A stretch of 32,000 nucleotides of DNA from an uncultured bacterium (GTDB taxonomy: Bacteria; Auribacterota; JACPWU01), in assembly GCA_964640155.1 (NCBI GenBank), contig CAZXEQ010000006.1:9013-41012 (forward strand). The letters run 5' to 3'. The notes beneath the pieces are model-generated. The model was not told where the DNA came from and made no database searches. It saw only the letters and a program-made list of their open reading frames with translations. The stretch's first letter is position 1. Each line of letters begins with the position of its first letter. A program made the translations under genes and the position numbers. Of this stretch, positions 1-28,212 are shown one piece after another.

Positions 1-55
1 CCTCACCTTCAATCCCTCCCCGGGTGTTACCATCGGTATGAATGATGATACTTTT
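1..55 (+). repeat. Copy 1 of an exact 55-nt direct repeat (partner at 742-796)
   Basis: Base-for-base identity cctcaccttcaatccctccccgggtgttaccatcggtatgaatgatgatactttt. Identity ends at nt 56 vs 797 (c vs g). Confidence 0.95.
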
Positions 56-1456
56 CAGGTAAATAATACTTTTACTTGGAGCGAAGGTCAGATTTCTGGG
101 GGGACGATTAAAGTGATTAAAGATCTCACTTATGATGCCAATGTCGATGGCGGTAATGGTTCTTCAGGTACTCTTCATTTGGCTCCTACCACCACTAAAA
201 CTTATACTCTTCCTGCATCTGCTCTTGTTCCCTCTTTCATTGTGGATACTAATGCTACGGTTAATACAGATGCAGATACCACGACTACTTTTGAAGGAAC
301 GATTCAAAATGTTGCGGGAACTTTAAATTTCAATGGCAGTGCTACGGTTGCTGGCACCACTACTCTATCAGGTGACTCTTCTACTACTTTAGCCAGTTCT
401 AAAACTCTTACATCCAGTAGTGATTTTAATCTTCAAGGTACTACCACTTCTTTTACTCTTTCCTCTTCTTCTACTTTTTCTACCTCAGGGACTTTTACTC
501 AGACAGGAGGGACTTTTACTTCTAATAATGCTGCTGTGACTTTCAACTATGTGGTAGACATCCAATCTGGAACTTTTAATTTATCTTCTGCAACTACTAC
601 CTTCAATGGCTATGCTCTTTTTAATGTCAGTGGTTCGGCTGATGCTACCATTAATCACAACAATGGCTCGGTTGTTGTCAGTCCTACAGGTAATATCGAT
701 TTCTATGCCGGTCCGGGTGCGGCTACCATTACTCTTTATAACCTCACCTTCAATCCCTCCCCGGGTGTTACCATCGGTATGAATGATGATACTTTTGAAG
801 CTGAAGGAAATCTTATTCTGAATGAAGGGTTTTTAAATTCCGGTGCCTTACGTTCGAAAGGAAATGTGACTGTTGGAACTGACTTTGATGGAGGAACTTT
901 CACTTCTCTCAAATTCATTGGAAGTAGCAATCAGAATTTTGATCTTACAGGAAACACAGGAGTTATTAACGCTGATATTACCATTAATAAATCGGCAGGA
1001 GAGGTCACACTTTTATCAGCACTTGTGATGGATGCAACTAATCAGGATCTATTTATCACTTCTGGAACTTTTAATTTATTTGGTCACAATTTGGATGTTA
1101 CTGGGGACAGTGGAACAATGGTCATTGATGCTGCTGGAACACTTCAACTACAAGGAAACGAAACCATCTCGGGAGGACCTGATAAGAACAGTGGAACTGT
1201 TATTTACAATGGAACAGAAAGTTATACAACTTCGCTAGCAGCAGGTAACACATATACTCACCTTACCTTTAATGGTTCTGGAGGCATCTGGGAACCTGAT
1301 GGAACTGTAAATGTGGAAGGAGATTTAACCATTGGAAATGGAATCTTAGATATCGATGGACAAGATCTTACAGTGAAAGGGACTTTTTCTAATGATGGAA
1401 CTTTAAGAGCTCAAGGAAATGAAACCATCTCGTTGGCCTCTAGCAATTCGGAAACC
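2..1456 (+). other. Beta-helix-like repeat region I of the giant protein
   Basis: Recurrent short motifs GTFT/GTFN/GTLN, NxxG and QGNETIS (twice, 264 nt apart). Very high Thr/Ser/Gly/Asn content. A ~247-aa unit is implied by the 741-nt repeat spacing. Confidence 0.5.
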
Positions 1457-4400
1457 AATTTATTTCTTTTTCATTTAAATAATGATCTTACTGATAGCGG
1501 CGCCCAAAATAAAACAGCTTCTTTGGGAGGAAGTGCTTCTTACACTGCTTCTGGAAAATACAGCGATGCAGTAAGCCTCGATGGAAGTGGTTACGTTGCT
1601 GTCAGTGATATGAATATGTCCACCACTCAAAGCTATACTGCCATGGCATGGTTCAAAGCTTCGGCGTTAGGCAGCAGCAACAATCAAATCATTGACACAA
1701 GAGCTTCAGGTTTTACAATACCTCTTCGTATGTTTATAAATAATGGAGAATTTGCCTGTTCCATTGAAACAGCAGGGGCCACCTACGCAACAGCAACATC
1801 AACCATTACCACTAACACCTGGTATCATGGGGCTTGTGTTTATAATTCAACTACACGCGTTTTATCTGCCTATCTTGATGGTACTTTTATTGGAAGTGTG
1901 ACCATTCCAGCTACAGATGTTTCTAGTACAGAATTTCATATAGGTGATGACCCTACTTTCAGCGGAGAAGGATGGACAGGGCTTATTGATGATGTGGTTG
2001 TTTATCCAAGAGTTCTAACGCCCACACAAATCAATACAGCCTACTCTTCTTCTTCAGAACATACTTACCTTACACTAACAGCGTATGATAATAATTCAGG
2101 AACTTTTGAATATGATGGATCTTCTAGCTATAGTTCTCTCTCAGGAGGAAATGATTATTATCATCTTGAAATTGATGGATCTGGAAGCTTCACACACACA
2201 AACACTTTAAATGTAGCAGGAAATTTAACCATTGCTCAGGGAACTTTGAACAGCAATGGACAAAATATTAACTTGAGTGGGAATTGGAATAATTCAGGAA
2301 CATATACCAGCGGCTCAAACACTGTGACCTTTGAAGGTCCTAACACTCAAACTCTCACATCGGGAGGGACAGGGACAGGCCAAGATTTTAATAATATCAC
2401 CATTTCAAAAGCATTGGGAACCGTTTCTCTACAAACAAACCCTCTTGATGTAGATGGAAATTTTACTTTAGATTCTGGGACTTTTTCTCAAGGGGATTTG
2501 ACCATAACAGTAGGTAATTTTATTATGAATAATGGAACATTTACAGGGGGTTCAGCTGCTGTTACTGTCAACACAGATTTCACACTTTCTGGAGGAGCGT
2601 TTACAAGCACCTCCAATACTTTAAATGTCTCAGGAGATTTTTCTCACACGGCAGGCACGTTTTTACATAATTCAGGAACTGTATCGCTATCTGGAGCAGA
2701 TCAAGATATTACGGGATCAACGACATTTTATCATTTCTCAAAAATTGTAGCTTCCTCCGCTGCTTTAAATTTTGAATCAGACTCTATTACAACTGTTGAA
2801 GGAACTTTAACACTCAAGGGTGCTGCAAGCAACCTCTTAAGCATTCGATCAAGCTCAGTAGGAACTCAAGCTAAAATTGATCCTCAAGGACCTAGAGTCA
2901 TTGAATATTTAGATGTCAAAGACAGTAACAATCTTACTTTACCTCAAATCTCCTGTGTAACAGGATGTATTAACTCTGAGAATAATCTTCAGTGGAATTT
3001 TACAGCCCCTACCATTGGCTTTACAACAACATCTACCAGTGGTTCTGAAAGTGTTACTCCTATTAGTATTGGAATTACATTATCGGAAAGCATTGATCAA
3101 ACAGTAACCGTTTCTTATGCAACTTCAGGAGGAACAGCAACAGGCAGTGGAACAGATTATACTTTACCCTCAGGAACAGCAACAATCGCTGCAGGAAGCA
3201 CAACCACAAATATTTCATTGGCAGTGGTAAATGATTCGACCGATGAATCTAATGAAACAGTGGCCATCACGCTTTCAAATCCAATCAATGCAACATTGGG
3301 AGCCAATACAATTCATACTTATACTATTCTTGATAACGACGATACGGTTGATCCTACACTAGATACAGACGGGGATGGATTAACGGATCAAGAAGAAGAA
3401 ATATTGGGAACAAATCCCAACAGTTCTGATACGGATGGAGACGGAATGCCTGATTTAGAAGAAGCCATTTCAGGAACTGATTCTAATGATTCCTCATCAT
3501 ACAATTCTATTCTCTTTCAAGATGATTTCTCAAATAATGCCAACCCCAAGGGATGGACTGAAAACTCTGACACAAGCAACAATGTTTCTTGGAATATCTC
3601 CGCAGGTAAACTAAATATGACAGCCACCAGTTCTGGCTACGCTTATTACAGCCCATCTACCTTGAACAGTTATATCTCTAGAGTTAATAAAATAGCCATT
3701 ACTTATGATGTTCAATTTTCAAATAGCAATGGTTGGGGTGGTCTTTGGTTATGGGGTGTATATATTGATATTAATAGGTTTCGTTCAGGAGTTAGAGATG
3801 TTTTAGCAGAGATAAGTACAGGCGTAGGAATGTATCACTTCTACAGTGGTATTCCTGACAATAATCAACATCACGTATTGATTCTTGTTTCAAAAGCATC
3901 TCCTTATTATAAAATGAGTCTTTACATAGACACCAAACCTATTTTCATTGATGAATCCATTGAAATCAGTTCTTTTCTGAGTAGTAGAGTCGGTCTTGTA
4001 TCCCCTTATTCAGCAGCAAATGCCATCTATGATAATTTTACAATTTGGGCTAATCCCAATCCAGCTTTGCTCCCCTTCTCAGAAGACTTTAGTACAGAAA
4101 GTTATGGATTATGGACCAGTTCTGGCAATAGCAATATTATATGGGATTTTAATGCCGGAAATCTTCAATCACAAAACTCTGTGTCTGGCTCAGGTTATGG
4201 CTATCTCCAACATGCATTAATGGATATTTCAGGAAAAGACGTTGTGATTGAATATGACACAAGATTCTTAGGAGGGACAACTTGGGGAGGAGTTTTGTGG
4301 AGAGGAATTGGTTGTGATGTAAATGTTAATCGTTCAGGGTGGAGAGATGGATCTTTTGAAGGGTATAATGGAACTTATCAGTTCTACACAGGGCTTTCAG

Positions 4401-5980: not shown

Positions 5981-5984
5981 TCTT

Positions 5985-7022
5985 TTAAGAATTTATTTTT
6001 TGACCGATCACTTTTGCAGCTTCTAGAAAAGCTTTTGTGATGGCAGAAGAAGAATCTCTTACAACGATAGGAACACCTTCATCTCCTCCTACTCGAACAG
6101 CAGCTTCCAAAGGAATTTTTCCTAAGAAAGGAACTTTCATTCTTTCTGCTTCTTTATGCCCGCCACCCTCTCTAAAAATATCTGTTTTTTCTTGGCAATG
6201 AGGACAAACAAAATAACTCATATTTTCAATGATACCTAAAATTTCTACGTTGAGCTTTTGAAACATGACTACACCTTTTTTAGCATCAATTAAGGCAACA
6301 TCCTGAGGAGTCGTTACAATTACCGCACCACGAAGAGGAACCAATTGAACCAAAGATAATTGAGCATCTCCAGTGCCCGGCGGCAAATCAACAATCAAAA
6401 TATCTAAGTCTTCCCACTGCGTATCATATAGTAATTGTCGAATTGCTCCTGTTACCATAGGTCCTCGCCAAATTACGGGATTATCGCCTTCCATAAAAAA
6501 GCCTAAGGACATCATGTGGACGCCATGCTTAAAATGTGGAATCAAGCGATTATTGGGAGTCAAAGCGGGTCTTTCCTGAAGGCCCATCATCATAGGAATA
6601 CTGGGTCCATAAATATCACAATCCAATAGTCCCACTTTTTTTCCAATAAGATGAAGCGCACAGGCTAAATTAACTGCAACGGTCGATTTTCCAACTCCAC
6701 CCTTTCCACTGGCAACAGCAATAATGGTCTTCACGCCTGGAACTGGTTTTTGTTCTAACGTAGCTCGGTCAGCCGCAGGACGAACAGGATTTTCATTCGC
6801 AGAGAATTGAATTGCATTTGAGAAAACAGGTCGAATAGATTCACAGATGAGTTGTTCTATTTGGCTTCTTTTCTCAGGAGGTTCTGTTGTATAAGCAATT
6901 GAAATATGAATGGTCTTATCTTTAATTTCAACCCCTTTAATCAAACCAAAGGAAACAATATCTCGGCTAAAGCCAGGATATTTTATTTGTCGCAAAATAT
7001 TAAAAATTTCTTCCGATGTCAC
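5985..7022 (-). CDS. mrp: Mrp/NBP35-family Fe-S cluster carrier ATPase (ApbC-like) with an N-terminal DUF59/MIP18 domain
   Basis: Deviant Walker A AVASGKGGVGKST, a CPHC motif (YFVCPHCQEKTDIF) and an N-terminal DUF59-like segment. GTG start at 7020-7022 is preceded by GAGG 5 nt upstream. Stop is at 5985-5987. Confidence 0.9.
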   Translation of the reverse strand: MTSEEIFNILRQIKYPGFSRDIVSFGLIKGVEIKDKTIHISIAYTTEPPEKRSQIEQLICESIRPVFSNAIQFSANENPVRPAADRATLEQKPVPGVKTIIAVASGKGGVGKSTVAVNLACALHLIGKKVGLLDCDIYGPSIPMMMGLQERPALTPNNRLIPHFKHGVHMMSLGFFMEGDNPVIWRGPMVTGAIRQLLYDTQWEDLDILIVDLPPGTGDAQLSLVQLVPLRGAVIVTTPQDVALIDAKKGVVMFQKLNVEILGIIENMSYFVCPHCQEKTDIFREGGGHKEAERMKVPFLGKIPLEAAVRVGGDEGVPIVVRDSSSAITKAFLEAAKVIGQKINS

Positions 7023-7041
7023 ATTGACCTCTAAATTTAAA

Positions 7042-7455
7042 TTATTCGCCTATGATTTTAACAATCACTCGCTTCTTTCTCTGTCCGTCAAATTCCGCAT
7101 AATAAACTTGTTCCCAAGGCCCTAAATCTAATTTACCTTTTGTGATGGGGAGAACAACCTGATGGCCAATCAAAAGATTCTTTAAATGTGCATCTCCATT
7201 ATCCTCTCCTGTTTGATGATGCCGATAGGGTTTGCCTGAAGGAGCTAGTCGTTCAAGCATTTGATCAATATCAGAAATTAAACCTTCTTCTGCATCATTC
7301 ACATAGACACCTGCAGTAATATGCATTGCGGAAACCAAAACCAAACCTTCTTCAATATTACTTTTTTGCAATGCTTCTTCAACGCGAGGCGTAATATTGA
7401 TATAGTCCCTTATTTTTTCCGTATTAAGCCATAAGTATTCAGTAAATGATTTCAT
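7042..7455 (-). CDS. YjbQ/UPF0047 family protein (secondary thiamine-phosphate synthase-like)
   Basis: 137 aa with ..[19 protein letters not shown].......P......[15 protein letters not shown]....LPI..GKL.LG.WQ.....EFDG.R.R.V.VKI.GE, which is characteristic of YjbQ. Confidence 0.85.
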
Positions 7456-7464
7456 TATTTAATT

Positions 7465-8358
7465 TTATTCCCCATATCCTAATCTTTTTAAAGCCCTTTC
7501 ATCATTTCTCCAATCTTTTATCACCTTGACCCAAAGTTCAAGAAAAACCTTTTTTCCTAAAAGATGTTCAATATCTTTTCTACTTTCAGCCCCGATTTTT
7601 TTGAGCATTTCCCCTTTTTTTCCAATCAAGATGGATTTTTGAGAATCTCTTTCAATAAAAATAAGCGCCTTGATAAACCATAACTCTTTTCCTTCTCTTT
7701 CCTTCATCTCCTCAATTTCAACGGCTACAGCATGAGGAACCTCTTCTTCCAAAAAGTCCAAAGCTTTTTCTCGAATGATTTCCTTTACAAAAAACCGTTC
7801 AGGACGATCGGTCAGCTCTCCCTCAGTAAAGAAAGGTTCCCCTTCTTTCAAATTTTCAAAGATACGCATAAGCAATTGATCTAGATTTTCTGAAGTGACA
7901 CAAGAAATGGGAATAACTTCCTTAAATGAATACAATCGCAAAGCTTCATCCATCAGAGGAAGAATCTTTCTTTTATTAACTGCATCCACCTTATTGATAA
8001 GAGCAAAAGTTGTTTTTCCAAAGCTCTGAATATTCTCTATCAATTGTCTATCTTCACTTCCAAAACCAGAATGAACATCCGTCATCAAAAGAATAAGATC
8101 TGCCTCATGAAATGAACTTTTAGCTTGATGCATCATATATTGACCTAAAGAAAGTCTCGACTCATAAATCCCTGGCGTATCTACAAAAATAATTTGACCT
8201 TCAGGTTTAGACAAAACACCTAAGATTTTATCTCGTGTGGTTCCAGGTTTAGAATTAACAATGGAAAGCTTCTCTCCCAACAAACAATTCATAAGAGTCG
8301 ACTTACCCACATTAGGCTTTCCAACAATAGAAACATAGCCAGATTTATACATCATCAC
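7465..8358 (-). CDS. era: GTPase Era
   Basis: G1 GKPNVGKST, G3 DTPG, G4 NKVD and a C-terminal KH domain (VIKDWRNDERALKRLGY). The start is ambiguous: GTG 8358, ATG 8355 or ATG 8352. The string TAAAAGGTGATGATG gives an AAGG(TG) SD, which favours one of the ATGs. Confidence 0.92.
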   Translation of the reverse strand: MMMYKSGYVSIVGKPNVGKSTLMNCLLGEKLSIVNSKPGTTRDKILGVLSKPEGQIIFVDTPGIYESRLSLGQYMMHQAKSSFHEADLILLMTDVHSGFGSEDRQLIENIQSFGKTTFALINKVDAVNKRKILPLMDEALRLYSFKEVIPISCVTSENLDQLLMRIFENLKEGEPFFTEGELTDRPERFFVKEIIREKALDFLEEEVPHAVAVEIEEMKEREGKELWFIKALIFIERDSQKSILIGKKGEMLKKIGAESRKDIEHLLGKKVFLELWVKVIKDWRNDERALKRLGYGE

Positions 8359-8361
8359 CTT

Positions 8362-9144
8362 TTAGTTTTTTGTCTTTCTCACAATGGTTGTAAAAACACC
8401 CCTTAAAATACGAATATCTCTTGAACCCAACTGAGCCCGATGCATAAAATTTCGAATAGATTCCATAAGAGTCTCCGGTTTCCCCTTAGTGAAATAACCC
8501 AGATGCTCTAAAGTATCCTTTAAATGGCCAAACATTCCTTCAAACTCTTTTTGACTCGCAATATCTTTTGCTTGTTTTAAATTTTGAGTTCCAAATCCTA
8601 AGATTTCATGATTCTTTGTTTTAGTAGTTCCTTTCGCCTTTAAACGATCCTTAAGATTTAAACTTGCAACATAAATTTCATAAGCATAAACCATAACTGC
8701 TTGCGCCAAATTTAAAGAAGGAAAACTTGAATGGGAAGGAATGCATGAAATACTTTGGCAAAGGGCTAATTCTTGATTTTCCAAGCCTTGATCTTCTGGC
8801 CCAAAAACAATCGCAACTTTCATTCCAGCAGGTAAAGATCCTATTTTTTCTGCCACTTGTCGAGGAGAAAAAAATTGATTAAATCTTCGTCGTTTTCTAC
8901 GAGTGGTAGCTACAGTCCAATGAAAAGGTTTTATGGCTGTTTTTAAATTTCGAAATATTTTTGCTTTTTTTAGAATGGACATATCCCCTACAGCCATTTT
9001 TCTTGCCTCATCATTTTCAAAATCACAAGGATTCACAAGAATGAGTTGACTGAGACCTGCATTTTTCATAGCTCGAGATACAGAACCAATATTTCCAGAT
9101 TTTATGGTACGAACCAAAACGATTGTAATATCCGAAAGTTTCAT
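8362..9144 (-). CDS. trmJ: tRNA (cytidine/uridine-2'-O)-methyltransferase, SpoU/TrmH family, TrmJ-like
   Basis: The N-terminus ITIVLVRTIKSGNIGSVSRAMKNAGLSQLILVNP closely follows the TrmJ pattern (IVLVE.sH.GNiGs.aRAmK.mGl..L.LV.P). SPOUT knot region: LNLAQAVMVYAYE. Confidence 0.8.
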   Translation of the reverse strand: MKLSDITIVLVRTIKSGNIGSVSRAMKNAGLSQLILVNPCDFENDEARKMAVGDMSILKKAKIFRNLKTAIKPFHWTVATTRRKRRRFNQFFSPRQVAEKIGSLPAGMKVAIVFGPEDQGLENQELALCQSISCIPSHSSFPSLNLAQAVMVYAYEIYVASLNLKDRLKAKGTTKTKNHEILGFGTQNLKQAKDIASQKEFEGMFGHLKDTLEHLGYFTKGKPETLMESIRNFMHRAQLGSRDIRILRGVFTTIVRKTKN

Positions 9145-13098: not shown

Positions 13099-14325
13099 AT
13101 GAAAAAAAGTATTCTCCTCTCCCAATGGATTTTACCTGTTTGCAAACCACCCATTCAAGATGGAGCTATTGTTTTAGAAAATGGAAAAATCTCGGATGTT
13201 GGAGAAGCAAAAAAAATTCTAAAAGAAAATCCAAAATTGGAGGTAGAAGATTTGGGACCATCCATTCTTCTGCCAGGCTTAGTCAATGCCCATACCCATT
13301 TAGAATATTCATGTTTATATGAGCAAATTAAACCTCAGAAAAATTTTTCAGGTTGGCTTCTTGAAATCATTCAACTCAAAAAAAATATTTCTAAAAACCA
13401 AATTGTTTTAGGCATTCAAAAGCATATTATTTCTTTAAAAAAATTGGGAATTATCCTTGTAGGAGAAGTTACAAATACAGGCCTTGCAGCTCCTCTCCTT
13501 GAAGAACAAAAACTCTCAGGTAATATTTATTATGAGCTTGTCGGAGATTGTTCTTTTCAAGAATATTTAAATACCGAGAAAAAACTAAAAGAAGAAGCAC
13601 CTTCATTTCATATTTCTCCAGCCTGTCACGCTCCTCATACTGTCCCATTAGACATTCTCAAAAAAGTTAAAGCATATATTCATCAAAAGAGACTTTATAC
13701 TTCCATTCATCTCTCAGAATCCATGGATGAAAATAAATGGATTCAAAAACTGAATGGGTCTTTCTCTGATCTTATTCAAACCAAAGCTCTTTTACAAAAT
13801 CCTTTTTTTGGGAAAGGACTTAGTCCCACTCAATATTTATATAAAAATAATTTCTTATCCCCTAAGGTTCTTTGCGTTCACTGTGCACATCCCCTTCCCC
13901 AAGACTTTTCTCTACTTAAAAAAACCGGCTCTTACATTGCACTCTGCCCACGCAGCAATCAATACACAGGAACCGGTCTTCCTCCTATTAAAAAACTTTT
14001 AAAATATAAAATACTTCTTTGCCTTGGAACAGATAGTCTGGCGAGTAATGATGATTTAGATTTATGGAATGAAATGAGATTTTTTAAAAAACACTTCCCT
14101 TTTCTTACTCTTCCCTTTATTCTACGGATGGCTACGCTTCATGGAGCCCATGCCCTAGGTTTTGGAAATGAATATGGATCCATTGAAAAAGGTAAAAAAG
14201 CAAAATTAATTTTTATTAAAACAGGAAAAAAACAGGTTCAAGACCCTTATCAATTCTTAATGGCAGAAAAACATGAAATCTTTCATTACAATTCTCACGC
14301 GTTACGCTCGATTAATTCGATTTAG
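13099..14325 (+). CDS. Amidohydrolase of the MTA/SAH / aminodeoxyfutalosine deaminase type
   Basis: Metal ligands HxH in GLVNAHTHLEYS, IHLSESMDE (the H.aE...E signature of this deaminase group), VHCAH, and LGTDSLASNDDLDLWNEM (compare the lGTD..aSNn.ldm..Em pattern). Its position directly upstream of quinone prenylation and methylation genes supports a futalosine-pathway role. Confidence 0.7.
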   Translation: MKKSILLSQWILPVCKPPIQDGAIVLENGKISDVGEAKKILKENPKLEVEDLGPSILLPGLVNAHTHLEYSCLYEQIKPQKNFSGWLLEIIQLKKNISKNQIVLGIQKHIISLKKLGIILVGEVTNTGLAAPLLEEQKLSGNIYYELVGDCSFQEYLNTEKKLKEEAPSFHISPACHAPHTVPLDILKKVKAYIHQKRLYTSIHLSESMDENKWIQKLNGSFSDLIQTKALLQNPFFGKGLSPTQYLYKNNFLSPKVLCVHCAHPLPQDFSLLKKTGSYIALCPRSNQYTGTGLPPIKKLLKYKILLCLGTDSLASNDDLDLWNEMRFFKKHFPFLTLPFILRMATLHGAHALGFGNEYGSIEKGKKAKLIFIKTGKKQVQDPYQFLMAEKHEIFHYNSHALRSINSI

Positions 14326-15127
14326 CCACAGCATCTTTGCTCTCCCCTTTGCATTTGCAAGCGTTCTTCTCGTGTCAAAATATTTTCAAATTCGCTCCAT
14401 TAAAATTCTATGGATCCTCATTGCTATGATTTCTGCTCGCAGTGCCGCCATGGCTTTTAATCGTATGATCGATTCAAAAATTGACGCCTTAAATCCTAGA
14501 ACTGTAAAAAGAGAAATACCTCAAGGCATTATTAGCTGGAAAGGGGCATTAACACTTGCTGTTTCTTCTTCTCTTCTATTCATTTATTCTACTTTTCAAC
14601 TCAACATTCTTTGCGCCATTCTCTCCTTGCCAACACTTATTCTTTTTATATTTTATCCTTACACCAAACGCTTCACTTGGCTTTCTCATTTATTTCTAGG
14701 TTTGAGTTTAGGCCTGGCACCTCTAGGAGCGTGGGTTGCCTTTACCGAAAGCTTGCAAGGTCCTATTTTACTATTGGGGTTGAGTGTTCTCTTTTGGGTT
14801 GCAGGATTTGACATTATCTATTCTACACAAGATGTTGAGTTTGATAAATCTCAAGGTCTCTTTAGCATTCCAGCTCAATTTGGCATTCAAAAAGGTCTTA
14901 AAATAGCCATGATTTTTCACGGAATTGCTTTAAGTCTTCTTATTTGGACAGGCATTCTTTTTCATCTTTCTTTTGCTTATTTTTTAGGATGTTCATTTAT
15001 TGGAGCAATAATGCTTTACGAACATTCTTTGGTAAATCCAACTGATCTTTCAAAAGTTCAAACCGCTTTCAATGCCAATGGTTGGATCAGTCTTCTTTAT
15101 CTTGTGTCTACATGGATGGGATTATGA
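14273..15127 (+). CDS. UbiA-family aromatic polyprenyltransferase (MqnP-like, menaquinone via futalosine; alternatively 4-hydroxybenzoate polyprenyltransferase)
   Basis: About 8-9 TM helices, Asp-rich motif NRMIDSKIDALNPRT and a second motif YSTQDVEFD. The N-terminus IRFSHSIFALPFA resembles the MqnP-type subgroup rather than E. coli UbiA (R.DKPIG). It overlaps the upstream deaminase gene by 53 nt. Confidence 0.8.
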   Translation: MKSFITILTRYARLIRFSHSIFALPFAFASVLLVSKYFQIRSIKILWILIAMISARSAAMAFNRMIDSKIDALNPRTVKREIPQGIISWKGALTLAVSSSLLFIYSTFQLNILCAILSLPTLILFIFYPYTKRFTWLSHLFLGLSLGLAPLGAWVAFTESLQGPILLLGLSVLFWVAGFDIIYSTQDVEFDKSQGLFSIPAQFGIQKGLKIAMIFHGIALSLLIWTGILFHLSFAYFLGCSFIGAIMLYEHSLVNPTDLSKVQTAFNANGWISLLYLVSTWMGL

Positions 15128-15729
15128 CACAAAAAAGACTCGTTATTGCTATCACAGGTGCCAGTGGTATGCTGTACGCTGAAAGACTTCTAAAAGCCCT
15201 TTGTCAAGAAAATCATATCGTTGAACTTATCATGTCAGAGAATGCAAGAGATCTCTTACATTTTGAAATTGGTCTTAAAAAATCTCAAAACATGAAAGAT
15301 TTTTTAGAAAAAAAATATAATCTCTCTTTAAACCCCAAGACCTTCAAAATATTTTCAAACGATGATTTGGCCGCGCCTCCTTCCTCTGGCACGCATCATC
15401 ATGATGGCATGGTGATTATCCCTTGCTCCATGAAAACACTTTCAGCTGTAGCCACAGGAGCCTCTCGAGCTCTCATTGAACGAGCTGCGGATGTTTGCTT
15501 AAAAGAATCTAGAAAATTAATTCTGGTGACACGCGAAACACCTTTGAGTCGAATTCACTTAGAAAACATGCTTCGTGTCACCGATGCTGGCGGGAAAATC
15601 ATGCCTTGTGATCCTGGATTTTATATCAAACCCAAAAAAATTGAAGATCTTGCTGATTTCATCGCAGGTAAAGTTTTAAATCTTTTAGGAATTGAACATC
15701 TGCTTTTTAAACCATGGGGAAATGAATAG
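15124..15729 (+). CDS. ubiX: Flavin prenyltransferase UbiX (prenyl-FMN synthase; MqnL-like)
   Basis: RLVIAITGASG...IIPCSMKTL.A.A.G.....IERAADV.LKE.R.LILV.RETPL. ATG 15124 overlaps the UbiA stop (ATGA at 15124-15127). The ORF-track start at 15082 lies inside the UbiA gene. Confidence 0.9.
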   Translation: MTQKRLVIAITGASGMLYAERLLKALCQENHIVELIMSENARDLLHFEIGLKKSQNMKDFLEKKYNLSLNPKTFKIFSNDDLAAPPSSGTHHHDGMVIIPCSMKTLSAVATGASRALIERAADVCLKESRKLILVTRETPLSRIHLENMLRVTDAGGKIMPCDPGFYIKPKKIEDLADFIAGKVLNLLGIEHLLFKPWGNE

Positions 15730-15776
15730 TCAACGGTTGCCAGTTTTCGGTCTCCAGTAAAACCTTCTCCAAAAAT

Positions 15777-16445
15777 ATGAATAACAAAACAAATATAGCA
15801 AACATGTTTAGTCGAATTGCCGAGCGTTATGATTTGGCCAATGATTTATTAAGTCTCGGGACCCATCGTTTATGGAAAAAAAAAGCCCTTCGACTCTTAA
15901 ATCTTCAACCGAATGACTGTCTTTTAGATCTTTGTTGTGGAACGGGAGATTTTTTAATTCAAGTTCATCAAGGATACGCCATAGGAGCTGATCTTTCTCA
16001 GACCATGCTAAAAGAAGCACATAAAAGAAATTCCCATTTACCCCTTATATGTGCGGATGGAGAAATCCTTCCCTTCCATAATACCTCATTTAACAAAGTT
16101 ATTATCGGTTTTGGCATTCGTAACATCCCTCAAACAGTCAAAGCCTTGCAGGAAATACATCGTGTTTTAAAATCAGAGGGAAGACTTGTCATTTTAGAGT
16201 TTTCAAAACCACGATCGAAATTCTTCTCAAAATTTTATCTTTTTTATCTTAATAAGATTCTTCCTATTATTGGAGGCTGGATTTCAAAAGAAAAATCTGC
16301 CTACGAATACCTCGCTCAAACCATTCAAAGCTTTCCAGACGGAAAAGATTTTTTAAAACTAATGGAAATAAGTGGTTTTACAAAAATAAATGATACTCGT
16401 TTGAACTTTGGAATTGCTTCGATTTACGAAGGGAACAAGCAATAA
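15777..16445 (+). CDS. ubiE: Demethylmenaquinone/ubiquinone C-methyltransferase UbiE/MenG
   Basis: MFSRIAERYDLANDLLSLGTHRLWKK (the UbiE N-terminal signature), the SAM motif LDLCCGTGD, and ILEFSKP...YL..SI..FP. Confidence 0.88.
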   Translation: MNNKTNIANMFSRIAERYDLANDLLSLGTHRLWKKKALRLLNLQPNDCLLDLCCGTGDFLIQVHQGYAIGADLSQTMLKEAHKRNSHLPLICADGEILPFHNTSFNKVIIGFGIRNIPQTVKALQEIHRVLKSEGRLVILEFSKPRSKFFSKFYLFYLNKILPIIGGWISKEKSAYEYLAQTIQSFPDGKDFLKLMEISGFTKINDTRLNFGIASIYEGNKQ

Positions 16446-16538: not shown

Positions 16539-19328
16539 CTAAAAACCATCTTCACTTGGAGGTGTCTTGACCGAAGCGGAGGGCTTTTCTGAACCAGAAG
16601 GTGCGACTTGAGTCTGAGTCTTTTGAATCTCAGGGCTTTGAGTTTGCAATGGAGTTTGAGTAGAAGTCTGTGATTGAGAAACCTCAGTCTTTGAAGAAGT
16701 TACAGATGTCGAGAAACCATTCATACTCACAATATAATCTCTAATCGCTCTTGTTTGCCAAACAGGATCCGCCAAAAAAGCATCTAACTCTGATCCAAAT
16801 AAATTTTCAAAGTATTGTTTTGTGTCTTTAAACTGAGGAGTTTTTAAAAGATTCGGGACAAAAGAAACACGCTTATCTCCCATTTTTGGAAAATTCGTCG
16901 GCATTTTTGTTCCAGGCTGTATTACTTCTGGTTCTAAAATCCAGCGAGCAATCCATTCATGCCTGAGACGATCTTTAGCTAAACCTAAATTAGGTCCCAA
17001 ATTCACCACTTGAGACCCTTTAGTAGATGGATCCATACTCACAGGGTGACAGGACATACATTTAAACATTTCAAAAAGTTTTTCCCCTGCTTTACGTTCA
17101 CGTTCAGGAACTTGAACATCTCCAAAATAATCAAATTCATAAGGATACTTTGCATCTGATAGTGATGAAAAATATGCCACAATGCTTGAAGCATCTTCAT
17201 CTGAAAGATTAAATTTCGGCATCCGCACCGTAAGCCAGGGTCTAATTAAAATAGGATTTTTCAAGAAGCTAAAAAGCCACTCAGGTTGAACTTTCGCACC
17301 TTCTCCCTCTAAACTAGGAGCAATTGCACTGCCCTTACCTTCAATGACATGACAGCCTGTACAGTTCAAGTCTCGAACTAAATTGCGCCCTTTCTCGATA
17401 GCATCTTCTTTTTTGGAAAGATTCTTTTTAAACTCGGACGGAATCTCCTTTTCTTCGCCACGGAAACTCGTCAACAAAGTAACCAGAGAATTGGCCTCTT
17501 CATCCGACAGATGAAAATTGGGCATCTTTTGTTCGATACGCTCCGTTGCATAAACTTGAGGATTTTTAATTTTATTAAAAGTCCAATCCCAAAGCGTATG
17601 AGGAATATCGTGCGCATAACCGAAAAAGAGAAGACTTAAATCCTTCGCTCCAAATGCTGTAAGTTCTGCACCCACGCGAGGTCTATTTTCAAGACCCGGA
17701 ACATTATGGCATCCAAAACATCCAAGGGACCCCATCAAATTCTTTCCCTTTTTTGCAAGGCCCACATCCACTGTTTCTGCCTTCGATGGATCCAGCCCCC
17801 AACTGTCATTTTTCAAAGTTATTAAATAACTGATCAAATGGGCAATTTCATCATCTTTAAGCCGCATGTTAGGCATTTTTCCATGAGGTAAATATTCACG
17901 AGGATTTTTTAACCAACGATACAGCCATTCTGGTCGAACTTTATTCCCCACATGTGTTAAATCAGGGGCAAAGGTTTCTCCTTCTTCACCTATTTTGTGA
18001 CAAGCAATACAAGCCAAATCTTTTACCAATTTTTTCCCTTCTTCTAGAGAACCCTTTTCTAAGGCCAATTTCTCATCACTCGTCATAGGAACGCTAGAGC
18101 TCAAACTTCCTAAATAATGTGCCATAGCCTTTGCTTCATCTTCTGTTACCTTAAATTGAGGCATACGTGTTGTTGGACTTAAACTTTTGGGATCTTTAAT
18201 CCAACGAGCCATCCAGTCCACAGTTGTTTTTTCGGAAATTTTGTCTAGTTCTGGTCCAACTTTTTTCGCATTTTCATATCCAGAAGCCAAATGACACCCC
18301 GAACAACCTAATTGGCCAAACAAGACTTTTCCTTGAGTTAATGTCGCGGCCTCTGGGACCTCCACTGTAGCATGACACTTCACGCAGGAGCTTTCTACCT
18401 TGTGATCCCTTAACAAAGGAAACTCCCAATGATGTACCTCTCCATGCGCATCCTTTACCGTTAAGGCAGATCCTTGTCCTCCATGGCAGGACGTACATCC
18501 AAATTTCTCTGGAGGGTGTTTTTTTAACAAAATATCAAGCTTGGGATGAGTTCGAAAGGGTTGTTCGTATTTTTGAGGATCTTCAAATCCGGGACGATCA
18601 ATCGCCAAATGACAGGTTTGACAACGATCTACTTTGTTTAAATCTTGGACAACAATCTGTTCAATTTTAGGACTTTTACGTTTTATATCTTTTACTTTTT
18701 TCTCAAGCATTTCGAGCTTGGTAGTCATCTGAATGATTTCTTTTTCAGTGTTTGAGACTTCTTCATCATGTGCTTGTACAATTCTCCACAAAGGAGCACT
18801 TTGATTCTCTACCTCTTTAATCTTAAGAGAAAGCTCATCTAATTCTTTTTGGTGTTGATCCACCTCCTGCTTTCGCCTATCAATATCTTTACTGTTTTCT
18901 AGTTTTGCTTTTTCAAAAAGATAATACACCGCATCAAAACGACTTTTCATGAATTGAGATTCTTTACCTAAATCTTCTAACTTATATTTTAGATCAGTGA
19001 GTTGATTTTTTGCTTGGATATAAGCTTTTTGTGCTTGAGAGTCTTGGGGACCCCCCTGAAGGGTTTTTAATTTTTCCTGAAGTGAACGATAAATTTTTTG
19101 CACTGCTTCTGATTCTAAATTTTGTTTCTCTATATTAAATTCCTCTGTCGCTTTTTCCAGCTCTAATTTAAAAAAAGTTTTTTGGAAATCTTTCCATGGA
19201 CGTCGATCAAAAGTCTCATCCCAAATCGCAAAAAGAGTAAGAAAAATAAGGCAAGCGACCGTAATAAAAAAAGGGATGCGAAAAGATTGCTCTTCTGTAG
19301 GTTTCTTTCGCCATTCATTTAAGCCCAT
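16539..19328 (-). CDS. Membrane-anchored octahaem cytochrome c: N-terminal TM helix, ~190-aa coiled-coil stalk, trihaem module, five tandem class-I monohaem domains and an S/T/Q/P-rich tail
   Basis: Eight CxxCH motifs: CQTCH, CTSCH, CVKCH, CSGCH, CIACH, CFGCH, CTGCH, CMSCH. The last five each sit in a repeated G..L...L.C..CH....G...P.L......V.P.W...W...P.......MP.F.L.D.E...L..YL unit with a distal MP (Met ligand). TM segment: IPFFITVACLIFLTLFAIW. Last gene of the Rieske/cyt b operon. Confidence 0.88.
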   Translation of the reverse strand: MGLNEWRKKPTEEQSFRIPFFITVACLIFLTLFAIWDETFDRRPWKDFQKTFFKLELEKATEEFNIEKQNLESEAVQKIYRSLQEKLKTLQGGPQDSQAQKAYIQAKNQLTDLKYKLEDLGKESQFMKSRFDAVYYLFEKAKLENSKDIDRRKQEVDQHQKELDELSLKIKEVENQSAPLWRIVQAHDEEVSNTEKEIIQMTTKLEMLEKKVKDIKRKSPKIEQIVVQDLNKVDRCQTCHLAIDRPGFEDPQKYEQPFRTHPKLDILLKKHPPEKFGCTSCHGGQGSALTVKDAHGEVHHWEFPLLRDHKVESSCVKCHATVEVPEAATLTQGKVLFGQLGCSGCHLASGYENAKKVGPELDKISEKTTVDWMARWIKDPKSLSPTTRMPQFKVTEDEAKAMAHYLGSLSSSVPMTSDEKLALEKGSLEEGKKLVKDLACIACHKIGEEGETFAPDLTHVGNKVRPEWLYRWLKNPREYLPHGKMPNMRLKDDEIAHLISYLITLKNDSWGLDPSKAETVDVGLAKKGKNLMGSLGCFGCHNVPGLENRPRVGAELTAFGAKDLSLLFFGYAHDIPHTLWDWTFNKIKNPQVYATERIEQKMPNFHLSDEEANSLVTLLTSFRGEEKEIPSEFKKNLSKKEDAIEKGRNLVRDLNCTGCHVIEGKGSAIAPSLEGEGAKVQPEWLFSFLKNPILIRPWLTVRMPKFNLSDEDASSIVAYFSSLSDAKYPYEFDYFGDVQVPERERKAGEKLFEMFKCMSCHPVSMDPSTKGSQVVNLGPNLGLAKDRLRHEWIARWILEPEVIQPGTKMPTNFPKMGDKRVSFVPNLLKTPQFKDTKQYFENLFGSELDAFLADPVWQTRAIRDYIVSMNGFSTSVTSSKTEVSQSQTSTQTPLQTQSPEIQKTQTQVAPSGSEKPSASVKTPPSEDGF

Positions 19329-19354: not shown

Positions 19355-20227
19355 TTATACGTTAAACCAGGGGGTTACCCAGATATATTTGATATTAAAT
19401 GCATAGCGAAGAAACATTTTGATAGGAAGTCCCATCATACTCAAGAAAAGAAACACAAAAATAGAAAATCTCATCCATCCCATTTCTTGAAGCAACGGAC
19501 TTTTACGCCATCTCAAAATCAAATACCATAAAAAGCCTAAAGAATAATATGCTCCCAAAACAGCAGCACCAAACAAATTAGCAACCAGAGGAGAACGAAT
19601 TTTTAAAAGATCTGAGAGATTGACATTTGCTACTGCTACTACTTTATGAGGATCCCATTCTTCCGTAATCCAAAATAAATTCCATCCTGGACCTCGTAAA
19701 AAAGTTCCCACTATAATCATGGCCACCCACAACCCTAAAAAACCAAAACAAAAAATTAAAATAGCCTTCTTTCTTTCCTTAAAAGTGTAATAACCATTTC
19801 CCAATGGATTACGATCAATGTAAGGAATGGCCATCAACCCTACAATAATGAGTGTTGGCAAAACAACTCCTGCAATCCATGGATCAAAATAAACAAGCAT
19901 TTCCTGAAGTCCCAGAAAATACCATGGCGCTTTGCTCGGATTAGGTGTCACAGCAGGATTGGCAGGTAGTTCAAGCGGAGCATCTATGCCTAAAGACCAT
20001 GCAAAAAGAATGAGCAAAGTAATCAAAACAGACATGAACTCGGCTCGAACTAGATAAGGGAAAACAAAAACCTTATCTACTTCTTTACGAGGATCCGGCT
20101 TAACTCGATAACGGTCATTATGGAATGCCTGTTTTAAAGCCAAACTCAAAAAGAAAACCACAAGAAATAACATTCCAACAATAGGAATATTATCTGGCTG
20201 AGTAATAATTTTTAGAAAATGATTCAT
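19355..20227 (-). CDS. Cytochrome b C-terminal domain / subunit IV-like protein of a b6-type Rieske/cyt b complex (enlarged, ~6 TM, 290 aa)
   Basis: Qo-loop region NPSKAPWYFLGLQEMLVYF aligns with the PEWY(F) motif of cytochrome b / subunit IV. It is multi-TM and lies immediately downstream of the b6-like gene. Confidence 0.75.
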   Translation of the reverse strand: MNHFLKIITQPDNIPIVGMLFLVVFFLSLALKQAFHNDRYRVKPDPRKEVDKVFVFPYLVRAEFMSVLITLLILFAWSLGIDAPLELPANPAVTPNPSKAPWYFLGLQEMLVYFDPWIAGVVLPTLIIVGLMAIPYIDRNPLGNGYYTFKERKKAILIFCFGFLGLWVAMIIVGTFLRGPGWNLFWITEEWDPHKVVAVANVNLSDLLKIRSPLVANLFGAAVLGAYYSLGFLWYLILRWRKSPLLQEMGWMRFSIFVFLFLSMMGLPIKMFLRYAFNIKYIWVTPWFNV

Positions 20228-20232
20228 AGTTT

Positions 20233-20379
20233 AAAACCGTAGATAGCAATTCGTAATTCGCAGTTCGTTAAAATTAGTAGCTCGTAGTTCGCAATTCATA
20301 GTTCGTTGAAAACAGCTATTGGGTTAAGATAATTTTAGTTTTTATCTTTTGCGATCTACGATTTACTAACTACGAACTA
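20233..20379. repeat. Inverted tandem-heptamer element 1: about 9 copies of (T/C)A(G/A)TTCG, a 46-nt AT-rich spacer, then 4 copies of the reverse complement CGAnCTA
   Basis: Read directly. 20240-20267 is TAGATAG CAATTCG TAATTCG CAGTTCG. 20278-20305 is TAGCTCG TAGTTCG CAATTCA TAGTTCG. 20352-20379 is CGATCTA CGATTTA CTAACTA CGAACTA. The 28-nt arms are complementary at 22/28 positions. The element fills almost the whole cyt b6 / subunit IV intergenic gap. Confidence 0.85.
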
Positions 20380-20386
20380 CTTGTTT

Positions 20387-21253
20387 TTAAAGAGGACCTG
20401 ATATTCCTCCATCCTTCCTCACTCTCCAAAAGTGAATCGTCACAAAAACCAAGAGGAAAAATGGCAAAGCAATACAATGCAATACATAAAATCTCAAAAG
20501 CGTTGGAGCACCTACTTGTGTACCTCCCAAAAGTAAGAAGCGCACATCATTATCGGGTTGCATTCCAAGTTGAGGACCAAAAGGTCCTTCATGACCTAAA
20601 AGAGGCGTTGCACGGGCCATGTTTGTTCCCACAGTCACTGCCCAAATCGCTAGCTGATCCCAAGGAAGAAGATAGCCCGTAAAACTTAAAATCATTGTTA
20701 GAACTAAAAGAATGACACCCACACCCCAGTTAAATTCACGAGGTGGTTTGTAAGAACCGGTCATGAAGACACGAAACATATGAAGCCACACGGTGATAAT
20801 CATGCCATGTGCGGACCATCGATGCATATTTCTCAAAAGCATTCCAAAGGGAACATCAAATTGGAGATATTTCATGTCGCTATAAGCGTATTCAGCTGTA
20901 GGTCGATAATAAAACATCAAAGCAACACCGGTCACCAGAAGAATCAAGAAAAGAAAGAAACTTAAACCACCCATACACCAAGTATGCTTAAACTTGACTG
21001 CACCCCTGAGAACTTTTACAGGATGCAAATGTAAAAATACATTTCCAATAATCGCCAAAGTTCGATTTTTAGGTGTGTCTTTATAATCATGGCGAAACAT
21101 AGAACGCCAAACTTGCGTTTTACGCAATTTTTGACGCAAAGTTTCTTTCACAATAGGCGGCTTAGCAGTCTCCACAGGTTTTGATGCCGTCGGTGCTGCA
21201 CCCGTAGAAGCTGGTGATGATGTTGGTGATACAGGCTTATTATCTTCTGGCAT
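20387..21253 (-). CDS. Cytochrome b6-type (N-terminal, 4-helix) cytochrome b with a P/A/S/T-rich N-terminal extension
   Basis: Helix B haem ligands H-x13-H ([15 protein letters not shown]). Helix D H-x14-H ([16 protein letters not shown]), which is the b6/Firmicute-type spacing. WCMGG aligns with the YC(L/F)GG Cys that binds haem ci covalently. The split-gene organisation has a separate subunit IV. Confidence 0.88.
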
Positions 21254-21283: not shown

Positions 21284-21847
21284 CTATATTTTGAGTAGCG
21301 CTTCTGGTTTATTCCACTCCCCTTTTTCAAATAGAAAAAGAGTGCCCTTATCAATCAATAATTGTCCATCGTCTGCAAGTGTAATTTTTACACGATCTAA
21401 AGCCCGAGGCGCAGGTCCTTCAAAATTAACCCCATCTCGACGAAAACCACTTCCATGACAGGGACATTTAAATTTATCCTCTACCGATAACCATACAGGC
21501 GTACAACCTAAATGGGTACACTTCGCAAGAAGGGCGTAAAAACCTTCCGAAGTTCGTGCAATCCATACACGCTGTTCAGAAGCCCAACGTGTGCTGATTT
21601 CTCCTGGAGGATATTCTTGAGGAAAACCCGCTTTAAAAATATTGGAAGGTTCAAAAAGCACTCGAGGGAAAAGATATCGCACAAGGCCCACCAGCCAGGA
21701 GCTCATCACAAGGCCAAAGAAATACCAGCCCGCTTTTACAAAAAAATCCCGTCGCGTATAAAGAGAAGCATCATCTTGAGACTGGATTTTCTTTTTTAAA
21801 TCTGGCTTTTTAACTTCCGCCGTAACATTCACTGGCTCAGTTGTCAT
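21284..21847 (-). CDS. Rieske [2Fe-2S] subunit with a Tat signal/anchor
   Basis: Box I CTHLGC, box II CPCHGS, twin-arginine motif TRRDFFVKAG followed by a hydrophobic helix. First gene of the operon. Confidence 0.9.
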   Translation of the reverse strand: MTTEPVNVTAEVKKPDLKKKIQSQDDASLYTRRDFFVKAGWYFFGLVMSSWLVGLVRYLFPRVLFEPSNIFKAGFPQEYPPGEISTRWASEQRVWIARTSEGFYALLAKCTHLGCTPVWLSVEDKFKCPCHGSGFRRDGVNFEGPAPRALDRVKITLADDGQLLIDKGTLFLFEKGEWNKPEALLKI

Positions 21848-22015: not shown

Positions 22016-22087
22016 TAGGTCGTTTTATTTTCCAGAAATAAAAATAATTTTTGATGATGAGCCACCTCAAGAAACAAGGTGAACGAA

Positions 22088-22402
22088 ATGGAAATGACTG
22101 ATACAAAAATAAAAGAAGTTAATGAAATACTTCAACAATGTTTTGACCCCGAAATCCCTAGTGTCAGTGTTGTTGACCTGGGCCTTATTTATGATATTCA
22201 AGTCCAGGGAGATCATGTTTCTATTAAAATGACTTTGACTGCAAGAGGTTGTGGAATGGCCAACATGATCTCAGATCAAATCAAAGTCATGGTTGAAGAC
22301 ATCCCTTGGGTTAAATCAGCCCAAGTCGACATTGTATGGGAACCCCCTTGGCATCCTGATCGCATGAGCGAAAAAGCTAAAAAAACTCTTGGATATGACT
22401 AA
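22088..22402 (+). CDS. DUF59/MIP18-family (SufT/PaaD-like) Fe-S cluster assembly-related protein
   Basis: ..DPEIPSVSVVDLGLIYDI......V.IKMTLTARGCGMANMI...I......I..V....V.IVWEPPW.P.RMSE.AK..LG is the classic DUF59 pattern with its conserved Cys. ATG 22088 has AAGGTG 6 nt upstream. The ORF-track start is GTG 22079. Confidence 0.85.
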   Translation: MEMTDTKIKEVNEILQQCFDPEIPSVSVVDLGLIYDIQVQGDHVSIKMTLTARGCGMANMISDQIKVMVEDIPWVKSAQVDIVWEPPWHPDRMSEKAKKTLGYD

Positions 22403-27155: not shown

Positions 27156-27221
27156 AATAATGACCTAATTTTAATAAAAATAAATAACATCCTTAATTTT
27201 ACATTTTAATTTTTGATTTTT

Positions 27222-28127: not shown

Positions 28128-28212
28128 CGTCGTGCGTATTGCGTCGTACGTACTGCGCCATAAATATTATATTGATTCACGCAGCACGCATCACGCAAAG
28201 CGCAGTACGGCC
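28128..28212. repeat. Inverted tandem-heptamer element 2: 5 copies of CGTnnTG, an AT-rich spacer, then 5 copies of CACGCAn (reverse-complement family nTGCGTn)
   Basis: Read directly. 28128-28162 is CGTCGTG CGTATTG CGTCGTA CGTACTG CGCCATA. 28178-28212 is CACGCAG CACGCAT CACGCAA AGCGCAG TACGGCC. GTACTGCGC (28150-28158) pairs with GCGCAGTAC (28200-28208). The element fills the entire gap between the binding-protein stop (28214) and the livH start (28124). Confidence 0.85.

Follow-up and report, generated by a model that had tools for sequence, protein, structure and literature searches.

A probable STRR-like heptanucleotide element, in inverted-pair form, within a cytochrome b operon of an uncultured bacterium

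Here we describe a repeat element in a 32,000-nt stretch of DNA from an uncultured bacterium (assembly GCA_964640155.1, contig CAZXEQ010000006.1, positions 9,013 to 41,012; this whole stretch is called the window, and positions are counted from its first letter). The element occupies the gap between the cytochrome b and subunit IV genes of a redox operon and consists of tandem heptanucleotides followed, after a spacer, by their reverse complements. It is very likely a single member of a dispersed family whose tandem heptanucleotide arrays resemble the short tandemly repeated repetitive (STRR) sequences of cyanobacteria, here in inverted-pair form. We more tentatively propose, at slightly less than even confidence, that it functions as an RNA hairpin akin to the repetitive extragenic palindromic (REP) sequences, with an effect on RNA stability or translation; the combined statement, STRR-like identity together with hairpin action, stands at about an even chance. 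As judged from sequence comparison, the element belongs to a dispersed set of heptamer-array families that retain the same positions and architecture as one occupying unit gives way to another.

Anatomy and predicted fold of the element

The cytochrome b–subunit IV gap is 159 nt long, compared with 30 and 26 nt at the other two junctions of the same operon. Three arrays of four units each, degenerate around the consensus YARTTCG, account for 84 of the 159 nt (53%) (Table 1). The two left blocks are separated by a 10-nt break, equivalent to a 3-nt phase slip, and are made up of a 38-nt tandem duplication (20229-20266 and 20267-20304, 71% identical). The 28-nt arms are complementary at 22 of 28 positions, and extended arms of 36 nt, 46 nt apart, reach 78%. 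On the operon mRNA, the 5' arm begins about 6 nt past the cytochrome b stop codon (20387-20389), and each of the three frames meets a stop within 24 nt of that codon. At the other end, block B terminates in ...GCUAUCUACGGUUUU, 12 nt short of the downstream ATG, a terminus it has in common with a family member at the ABC-transporter junction of a relative at 88% identity, L205. The first-pass annotation of this DNA, made from the letters alone, had reported the array coordinates, phase slip, 46-nt spacer, arm match, three-frame stops, distance to the ATG and a CpG at fixed phase, and all of these hold. It had also called the gap almost entirely strictly periodic; the periodicity stands, while the extent was overstated, given the degenerate units and an array share of about half.

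Lag-7 autocorrelation of the gap is 0.47, above the maximum of 0.44 found over all lags in 5000 shuffles, and Tandem Repeats Finder (TRF) reports period 7 there. When three tandem YARTTCG units were searched with up to three mismatches, all seven matches in the window fell within this gap, against 0.01 expected. The element holds 10 CpG dinucleotides in 147 nt, in a window whose observed/expected CpG ratio is 0.67, and the CpG phase is fixed in 10 of the 12 units. An independent Logan assembly of the locus (L001) is identical to the window, so the element is not an assembly artefact. A promoter-like match (TTGAAA-16 nt-GATAAT) lies in the spacer at 20306-20333 on the + strand, antisense into cytochrome b; promoter-like matches in the region are no more frequent than in shuffles. 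We set aside a 22-codon open reading frame (ORF) that starts inside the 3' arms with an ATG at 20298-20296 and stops 4 nt ahead of the subunit IV ATG; it is made of repeat units and has no ribosome-binding site.

The operon-sense RNA of the gap is predicted to fold into one long imperfect hairpin of -39.9 kcal/mol (z -4.9), a value that none of 200 shuffles equalled. The antisense strand gives -37.5 kcal/mol (z -3.1). The predicted stem is about 30 bp, interrupted, and nearly fills the gap from stop codon to next start codon. The 5' arm is able to pair with either 3' block, as had been suggested from its multiple registers: it is expected to form 21 pairs with block A versus 8 with block B, and the alternatives are the proximal block at -35.1 kcal/mol, the distal block at -29.2 kcal/mol, or parts of both. 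No match in the window reached the Rfam gathering thresholds; in E-value mode the only matches were far below threshold (MIR8562 at 25.7 versus 211 bits, GlsR9 at 19.5 versus 95).

Two alternative 3' partners could signify an intra-operon attenuator or partial terminator, in which the distal-block hairpin and its UUUU stop some transcripts and proximal pairing serves as the anti-terminator. A U4 follows the distal block, and after the family member in L205 comes U7, immediately ahead of the ATG. However, a scan for intrinsic terminators called no site in the gap, and the stem differs from such terminators in being A/U-rich, with a 46-nt spacer and a U-run of only four. Most related elements have no U-tract, and the window's ABC-transporter element, those of relatives L206 and L208 and the metagenome arrays described below are instead followed by GGAGG. 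No sensor or leader peptide is evident either, and we regard attenuation as quite improbable.

A second inverted heptamer array lies in the same window, between the substrate-binding protein and first permease genes of an ABC transporter operon. Its units are different (CGTCGTG CGTATTG CGTCGTA CGTACTG), its 30-nt arms flank a 22-nt A+T-rich loop, and it fills the 89-nt intra-operon gap. The sense strand folds at -39.2 (z -5.9) to -40.2 kcal/mol and the antisense strand at -31 to -33 kcal/mol, so that both window elements fold better in the sense direction. Because the unit of this second array is CGTNNTG, a single sequence-specific reader of TAGTTCG cannot explain the phenomenon. A third gap in the ABC transporter operon (27156-27221) seemed 7-periodic and was rejected as an element, since it is ordinary A+T-rich sequence and shows no fold (z +1.5).

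These results refute the view that the element is a one-off slippage product or a chance inverted repeat without relatives, which we find hardly credible. In its favor, there is a single locus with a TAGTTCG-type unit in the window. Against it are the seven matches where 0.01 would be expected, the second element, a member of the family in a relative at 88% identity, and the at least 120 stretches found in reference genomes.

Table 1. Positions of the heptamer elements and of the cytochrome operon genes in the window.
Feature	Position	Strand	Remarks
Heptamers TAGATAG CAATTCG TAATTCG CAGTTCG	20240-20267	read on +	
Heptamers TAGCTCG TAGTTCG CAATTCA TAGTTCG	20278-20305	read on +	
Spacer/loop	20306-20351	minus	46 nt, 76% A+T, not 7-periodic; inner small stem-loop at ~20326-20348 in the minimum-free-energy fold
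Complementary heptamers CGATCTA CGATTTA CTAACTA CGAACTA	20352-20379	read on +	
5' arm of the hairpin on the operon mRNA	20349-20387	minus	mRNA heptamers UAGUUCG UAGUUAG UAAAUCG UAGAUCG
Proximal 3' arm, block A	20267-20305	minus	Main partner of the 5' arm; heptamers 20278-20305 match it at 22/28
Distal 3' arm, block B	20229-20266	minus	Second copy of the 38-nt tandem duplication
Inverted heptamer array, unit CGTNNTG	28128-28209	minus	Gap between substrate-binding protein and first permease genes
Rieske protein gene	21284-21847	minus	
Cytochrome b, N-terminal b6-like part (PF00033)	20387-21253	minus	Gene upstream of the gap
Cytochrome b C-terminal / subunit IV-like protein (PF00032)	19355-20227	minus	Gene downstream of the gap
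Multihaem cytochrome c, 929 aa	16539-19328	minus	

Place among known heptanucleotide repeats

Heptanucleotide repeats have been known since 1990, and no other long simple repeats are as over-represented in bacteria. To our knowledge, YARTTCG is not among the classical STRR units. Under a broad definition of STRR-like repeats, a head-to-tail 7-nt unit in at least three to four copies, the three four-unit arrays qualify; in the strict sense of Mazel et al. (1990), which implies a filamentous or heterocystous cyanobacterial host and the classical units, they do not. STRRs of filamentous cyanobacteria usually have 7-bp repeats, are capable of forming hairpins and are found between hupS and hupL, where roles in transcript stability or translational coupling have been proposed (PMC2670836). 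The window element resembles them in its tandem 7-nt units, its intercistronic position in a membrane redox enzyme operon, its capacity for a hairpin and the several unit families per genome, and 56 of the 120 YARTTCG matches listed are cyanobacterial. The host here, however, is not a cyanobacterium.

Heptameric repeats are over-represented among bacterial simple repeats, and Xanthomonas genomes each contain 70-75 convergent, inverted pairs of GGGAATC arrays, most of which are transcribed (Rehm et al. 2015, PMC4692102). These arrays keep their position while their length and sequence vary between close species (PMC4692102). Like them, our element is intergenic, has mostly about four units per array, and pairs the same unit on opposite strands at close range in a convergent arrangement able to form a stem-loop. 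The Xanthomonas units, by contrast, are G-rich and form G-quadruplexes, which TAGTTCG and CGAACTA cannot do, since they contain no G runs. In Geobacter metallireducens, heptanucleotide and octanucleotide arrays are mostly paired, and their annotation is that of putative binding sites for a global regulator (Aklujkar et al. 2009, PMC2700814). These multicopy sets of four to five tandem heptanucleotides are drawn as going along one strand and returning on the opposite one, a layout like that of the window element, although their units differ (MTYCTGA, GGACCGG). The TAACTGA repeats of Beggiatoaceae, Cyanobacteria and Bacteroidetes have a patchy cross-phylum spread (MacGregor 2015, PMC4679880). 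They share with the window element a tandem heptamer in intergenic regions, often just ahead of start codons, and absence at the same site in close relatives, but they are nearly all direct (169 direct, one indirect) and have been proposed as single-stranded binding sites rather than hairpins (PMC4679880).

The first-pass annotation had noted a likeness to STRR heptamers and REP-type hairpins, which we support together with its suggestion of an intra-operon mRNA hairpin. Its statement that it knew of no described family with this inverted-array form is countered by the hupS-hupL (PMC2670836), Xanthomonas (PMC4692102) and Geobacter (PMC2700814) repeats. The form is thus already described, and this locus adds a host lineage outside the usual ones.

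When one genome per species was scanned for exact runs of three tandem YARTTCG units, at least 120 stretches were found, compared with about 17 expected by chance on our own estimate. By record title, the 120 matches listed comprise 56 from cyanobacteria (mostly Nostocales), 19 from Bacteroidota (Chitinophaga and others), 13 from Acidobacteriota, 6 from Planctomycetota and 5 from Chloroflexota, with the rest scattered. TAATTCG is the dominant unit among the matches listed. Many of these are near-perfect (AATTACG)n...(CGTAATT)n hairpins, and some have the arm order and unit of the window element, e.g. L063. Hairpins of the former kind were seen in Chitinophaga (L014, L016, L077, L079, L116, L119 and L121), where a second long hairpin, of unrelated sequence, is often nested inside them, in Pyrinomonadaceae (L028 and L108) and in Chloroflexia (L047). 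Neither these strings nor the unit YARTTCG as a string was found in the literature searched. In viral contigs the pattern gave 83 stretches; some contigs, including giant-virus bins, carry several arrays (L242, IMGVR_UViG_3300020045_012626, at 4795-9095; L212; L244), and one has five in 4.3 kb at a spacing of about 1.3-1.5 kb.

We next consider the class as a whole, using 874 kb around 120 loci seeded by the YARTTCG pattern. Period 7 stands out, with 295 arrays versus 6, 12, 10 and 4 for periods 5, 6, 8 and 9, and in 117 of the 295 the unit is unrelated to the seed. A reverse-complement partner (at least 17/21 matches within 250 nt) accompanies 116 of 335 arrays (35%), whereas reversed and complement-only controls gave 1 and 9 (0.3-2.7%); direct copies numbered 38. 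Based on crude ORF calls, 158 arrays lie in co-directional, 52 in convergent and 17 in divergent gaps, and 57 (17% of 335) fall within ORFs, although genes make up 83% of this sequence. Elements that are tolerated where 3' and intercistronic regions are transcribed would be expected to spread in this way.

REP sequences and bacterial interspersed mosaic elements (BIMEs), like other intercistronic stem-loops, set segmental mRNA stability, as in E. coli malE-malF and the Rhodobacter puf operon. REPs have conserved-palindrome arms and a link to REP-associated tyrosine transposases (RAYTs), and they can shield upstream mRNA from 3' exonucleases. The heptamer arrays are similarly dispersed extragenic hairpins of co-directional and convergent gaps and, like REPs, are seldom found in divergent gaps; they differ in that their arms are tandem repeats rather than a conserved palindrome.

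Heptad operator arrays of the omega/ParB type use one heptad sequence per regulator and are located at promoters. A protein or methylase binding array was among the possible roles listed in the first-pass annotation. A DNA-level array of sites for an omega/ParB-type protein, for a global regulator or for a CpG/TTCG methyltransferase could account for the fixed CpG phase, for the occurrence of the YARTTCG unit in many phyla and for the annotation given to the paired Geobacter arrays (PMC2700814). However, the unit varies within the 32 kb and, among relatives, at one and the same junction, the spacer between arms is variable, the position is inside an operon and not at a promoter, and divergent, promoter-bearing gaps are avoided (17/335). 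We therefore consider a binding array very improbable.

Turnover of the unit among relatives

By its housekeeping and operon proteins, the window belongs to a thinly sampled clade whose named members are metagenome-assembled genomes labelled Chlamydiae or Chlamydiota at NCBI, a label that is unconfirmed. We compared four syntenic relatives, L205, L206, L207 and L208, at the cytochrome b–subunit IV gap. In L206 (subunit IV 84% identical) the gap is 113 nt and contains GGGGATW... / ...AATCCCC arrays; in L207 (75%) it is 142 nt with CAGTCAA / GGTCAAC arrays; and in L208 (74%) it is 79 nt with TAGTCGW / CGAACRA arrays and the highest lag-7 value, 0.62, of a range of 0.39-0.62 for these three junctions. 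The 89-nt gap of L205 (88%) is weakly periodic and appears decayed. In L122, whose cytochrome b is 93% identical, the contig ends 27 nt past the stop codon (1695-1721), short of the junction, the kind of ending that a repeat at this point would produce by interrupting short-read assembly.

The ABC-transporter junction shows the same exchange. Its flanks align base for base between the window and L205, with gaps of 89 versus approximately 93 nt, yet the L205 gap holds a TAGTTCG-family inverted array (z -4.4) where the window has CGTNNTG. This L205 element aligns with the window element at the cytochrome b junction. The two have in common the variants TAGTTCG, TAGTTAG and TAAATCG and the termini AAAACAGTARTTCG... 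and ...GCNATCTACGGTTTT; the inverted termini AAAACAGTA...TACGGTTTT are likewise common to two family members. Five pairs at the ABC junction changed on both sides between the window and L205, versus 0-2 in slid controls, a weak signal of compensatory change from two sequences with shifting registers.

Each relative has 5-7 heptamer arrays per ~20 kb, nearly all in co-directional intra-operon gaps, and none of period 8 or 9. Some units are found at two loci inside one relative genome. Other inverted heptamer arrays, with other units, were seen in intra-operon gaps at L208 8995-9105, L205 18585-18664, L206 845-974 and L207 15063-15158; the junctions occupied by these extra arrays in L205-L208 are Rieske–cytochrome b, aldehyde dehydrogenase–thiolase, the ABC transporter operon and UbiE–flavoprotein (lag-7 0.46-0.52). 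The first-pass annotation had held that a lack of other copies and of conservation at orthologous junctions would count against its proposal. The sequence is indeed not conserved at orthologous junctions, whereas architecture and position are, and other copies of the family exist. The unit sequence is, as far as these alignments go, interchangeable: since the second window array has CGTNNTG and the same junctions in relatives carry still other units, the unit is not the point. These other units also weaken the case for a protein or methylase binding array.

Near-identical assemblies showed no difference in copy number (window versus L001; the L208 and L209 junctions are identical), and a role in phase variation is therefore unsupported.

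More distantly, we examined 80 metagenome contigs encoding subunit IV relatives at 60% identity or less, taking a fold z below -3 to define a structured gap. Cytochrome b–subunit IV gaps were structured in 21 of 46 cases (7 period-7 rich), subunit IV–cytochrome c gaps in 19 of 45 (19 period-7 rich) and Rieske–cytochrome b gaps in 3 of 42 (2 period-7 rich), while neighboring co-directional gaps on the same contigs were structured in 4 of 47, with 2/47 rich in period 7. The subunit IV–cytochrome c gaps often contain (GTCGTTR)n...(YAACGAC)n inverted arrays that end a few bases ahead of GGAGG. Such arrays were noted in soil and peat relatives (L141, L143, L145, L154, L164, L177, L193 and L200), mostly at ~3910-4050 and with varying unit number. 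Many cytochrome b–subunit IV gaps have G+C-rich nested palindromes instead. In L143, L148, L165, L167, L169 and L184 these G+C-rich palindromes are built on GTGGGGACAGCCGCCCTCGGCTGTCC...GGACGGCCGAGGGCGGCCGTCCCCAC, with fold energies as low as approximately -100 kcal/mol; this repeat of the G+C-rich relatives looks like a family of the REP or miniature inverted-repeat transposable element (MITE) type.

Possible action on the operon RNA

The operon is of the Rieske / split cytochrome b / multihaem cytochrome c type and is not a cyanobacterial b6f operon. Both genes flanking the 159-nt gap are supported by Pfam, which places the heptamer element in noncoding sequence. We propose that one transcript covers the element along with the Rieske, cytochrome b, subunit IV and cytochrome c genes, and that the RNA would form a long imperfect A/U-rich hairpin from 6 nt past the cytochrome b stop to 12 nt before the ATG. 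Most likely, this hairpin would act as a REP-like intercistronic stem-loop, serving as a barrier to 3'-5' exonucleases and/or as a processing site for a double-strand-specific enzyme of the RNase III type. With the sequence upstream of -12 taken up by the hairpin, translation of the downstream gene would also be uncoupled, its initiation being independent of, or weaker than, that of the upstream gene. In this way the hairpin would fix the ratio of output between the upstream genes (Rieske, cytochrome b) and the downstream ones (subunit IV, cytochrome c), and the unit sequence itself would be of no importance. Arrays probably lengthen and shorten by slippage; here a 38-nt block is duplicated, and the arms are still complementary. 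A unit family may spread or homogenize between loci through gene conversion among copies or MITE-like mobility. A translational gate had been suggested in the first-pass annotation from the missing Shine-Dalgarno sequence before the subunit IV-like gene. That argument carries little weight: roughly one in two genes of the window has no such sequence, so its absence here is unremarkable.

Strand preference in one of three data sets is consistent with action at the RNA level. In the 43 strongly structured operon gaps of the metagenome contigs, the sense strand folds better in 30, with a mean difference of -3.4 kcal/mol (Wilcoxon p = 0.0008) and 166 versus 118 G-U pairs. Several observations nevertheless weigh against the hairpin proposal and the family assignment. 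The 43 operon hairpins are phylogenetically related, so this p value is overstated. Among 33 co-directional gaps of the YARTTCG-seeded set the bias is non-significant (20 versus 13, p = 0.10), and in the close clade it is mixed (7/10), with L207 and L208 folding better in antisense. The 32-kb window has only one TAGTTCG-family locus. In relative L123, whose cytochrome b is 81% identical, the gap is only 27 nt and contains no element; the hairpin is thus dispensable.

These points are also relevant to the explanation that the element is a selfish or neutral repeat without a role here, MITE-like or driven by conversion, which inserts into short gaps downstream of genes or is tolerated only there. 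The hairpin would then be a by-product of propagation, for example through single-stranded DNA hairpins. Consistent with this are the presence of the same family with common termini at different loci of related genomes, the change of junction occupant among relatives 74-88% identical with one relative lacking any, the arrays in viral contigs, the weakness of the sense-strand bias in two of three data sets, and a possible TTTAAA direct repeat flanking the window element. However, the TTTAAA on the cytochrome b side is a conserved gene end in all relatives and there is none at the ABC junction, leaving no convincing target-site duplication, and no transposase is linked to the element. The arrays at the ABC junction have near-equal length and position with different units in two genomes, which would be odd for independent insertions. 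Structured gaps are enriched at operon junctions (33/99 versus 4/47 neighboring gaps on the same contigs), and the sense-strand bias of the 43 operon hairpins also speaks for a role. Overall, we find a purely selfish repeat somewhat unlikely.

A bolder possibility is that inverted heptamer arrays are cross-phylum, self-renewing elements that a dedicated process makes and maintains, and that persist at particular intercistronic junctions as RNA hairpins which can replace one another and adjust the stoichiometry of operons. They could be renewed by hairpin-templated copying between arms together with conversion between copies, or by an enzyme that lays down 7-nt units. The signature of such renewal would be the pattern observed here, in which position, length and architecture are kept at orthologous junctions (cytochrome b–subunit IV and ABC transporter) while the unit is replaced. 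The reappearance of one unit, YARTTCG, mostly as TAATTCG, in Cyanobacteria, Bacteroidota, Acidobacteriota, Planctomycetota, Chloroflexota and others would belong to it as well. We hold this idea to be doubtful and clearly unlikely.

Several neighboring features were also observed. In the regions 13099-16445 and 22079-22402, genes of quinone-biosynthesis type for a UbiA prenyltransferase, a flavoprotein and a UbiE methyltransferase converge on the cytochrome operon, and an FeS-assembly-P gene lies divergently upstream; this neighborhood is kept in L205-L208. Inside the multihaem cytochrome c gene, at its 5' end, lies a 23-nt tandem repeat of 1.9 copies (TRF score 60, 19237-19281). The product of 38-5980, 1980 aa long, combines Laminin_G_3, Calx-beta and bacterial TSP3 repeat domains and probably serves as a large surface or adhesion protein.

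Returning to the heptamer arrays, the two operon junctions provide a clean comparative series: in genomes of 74-88% identity they are filled by inverted arrays whose units differ, and one unit family moves between junctions. The same junctions and architecture with different units are the most useful lead, and they carry the prediction that the hairpin matters and the unit does not. If the RNA-hairpin role is false, these arrays would represent a widespread selfish repeat. If it is true, such repeats would be a general and evolvable means of setting expression ratios inside operons.

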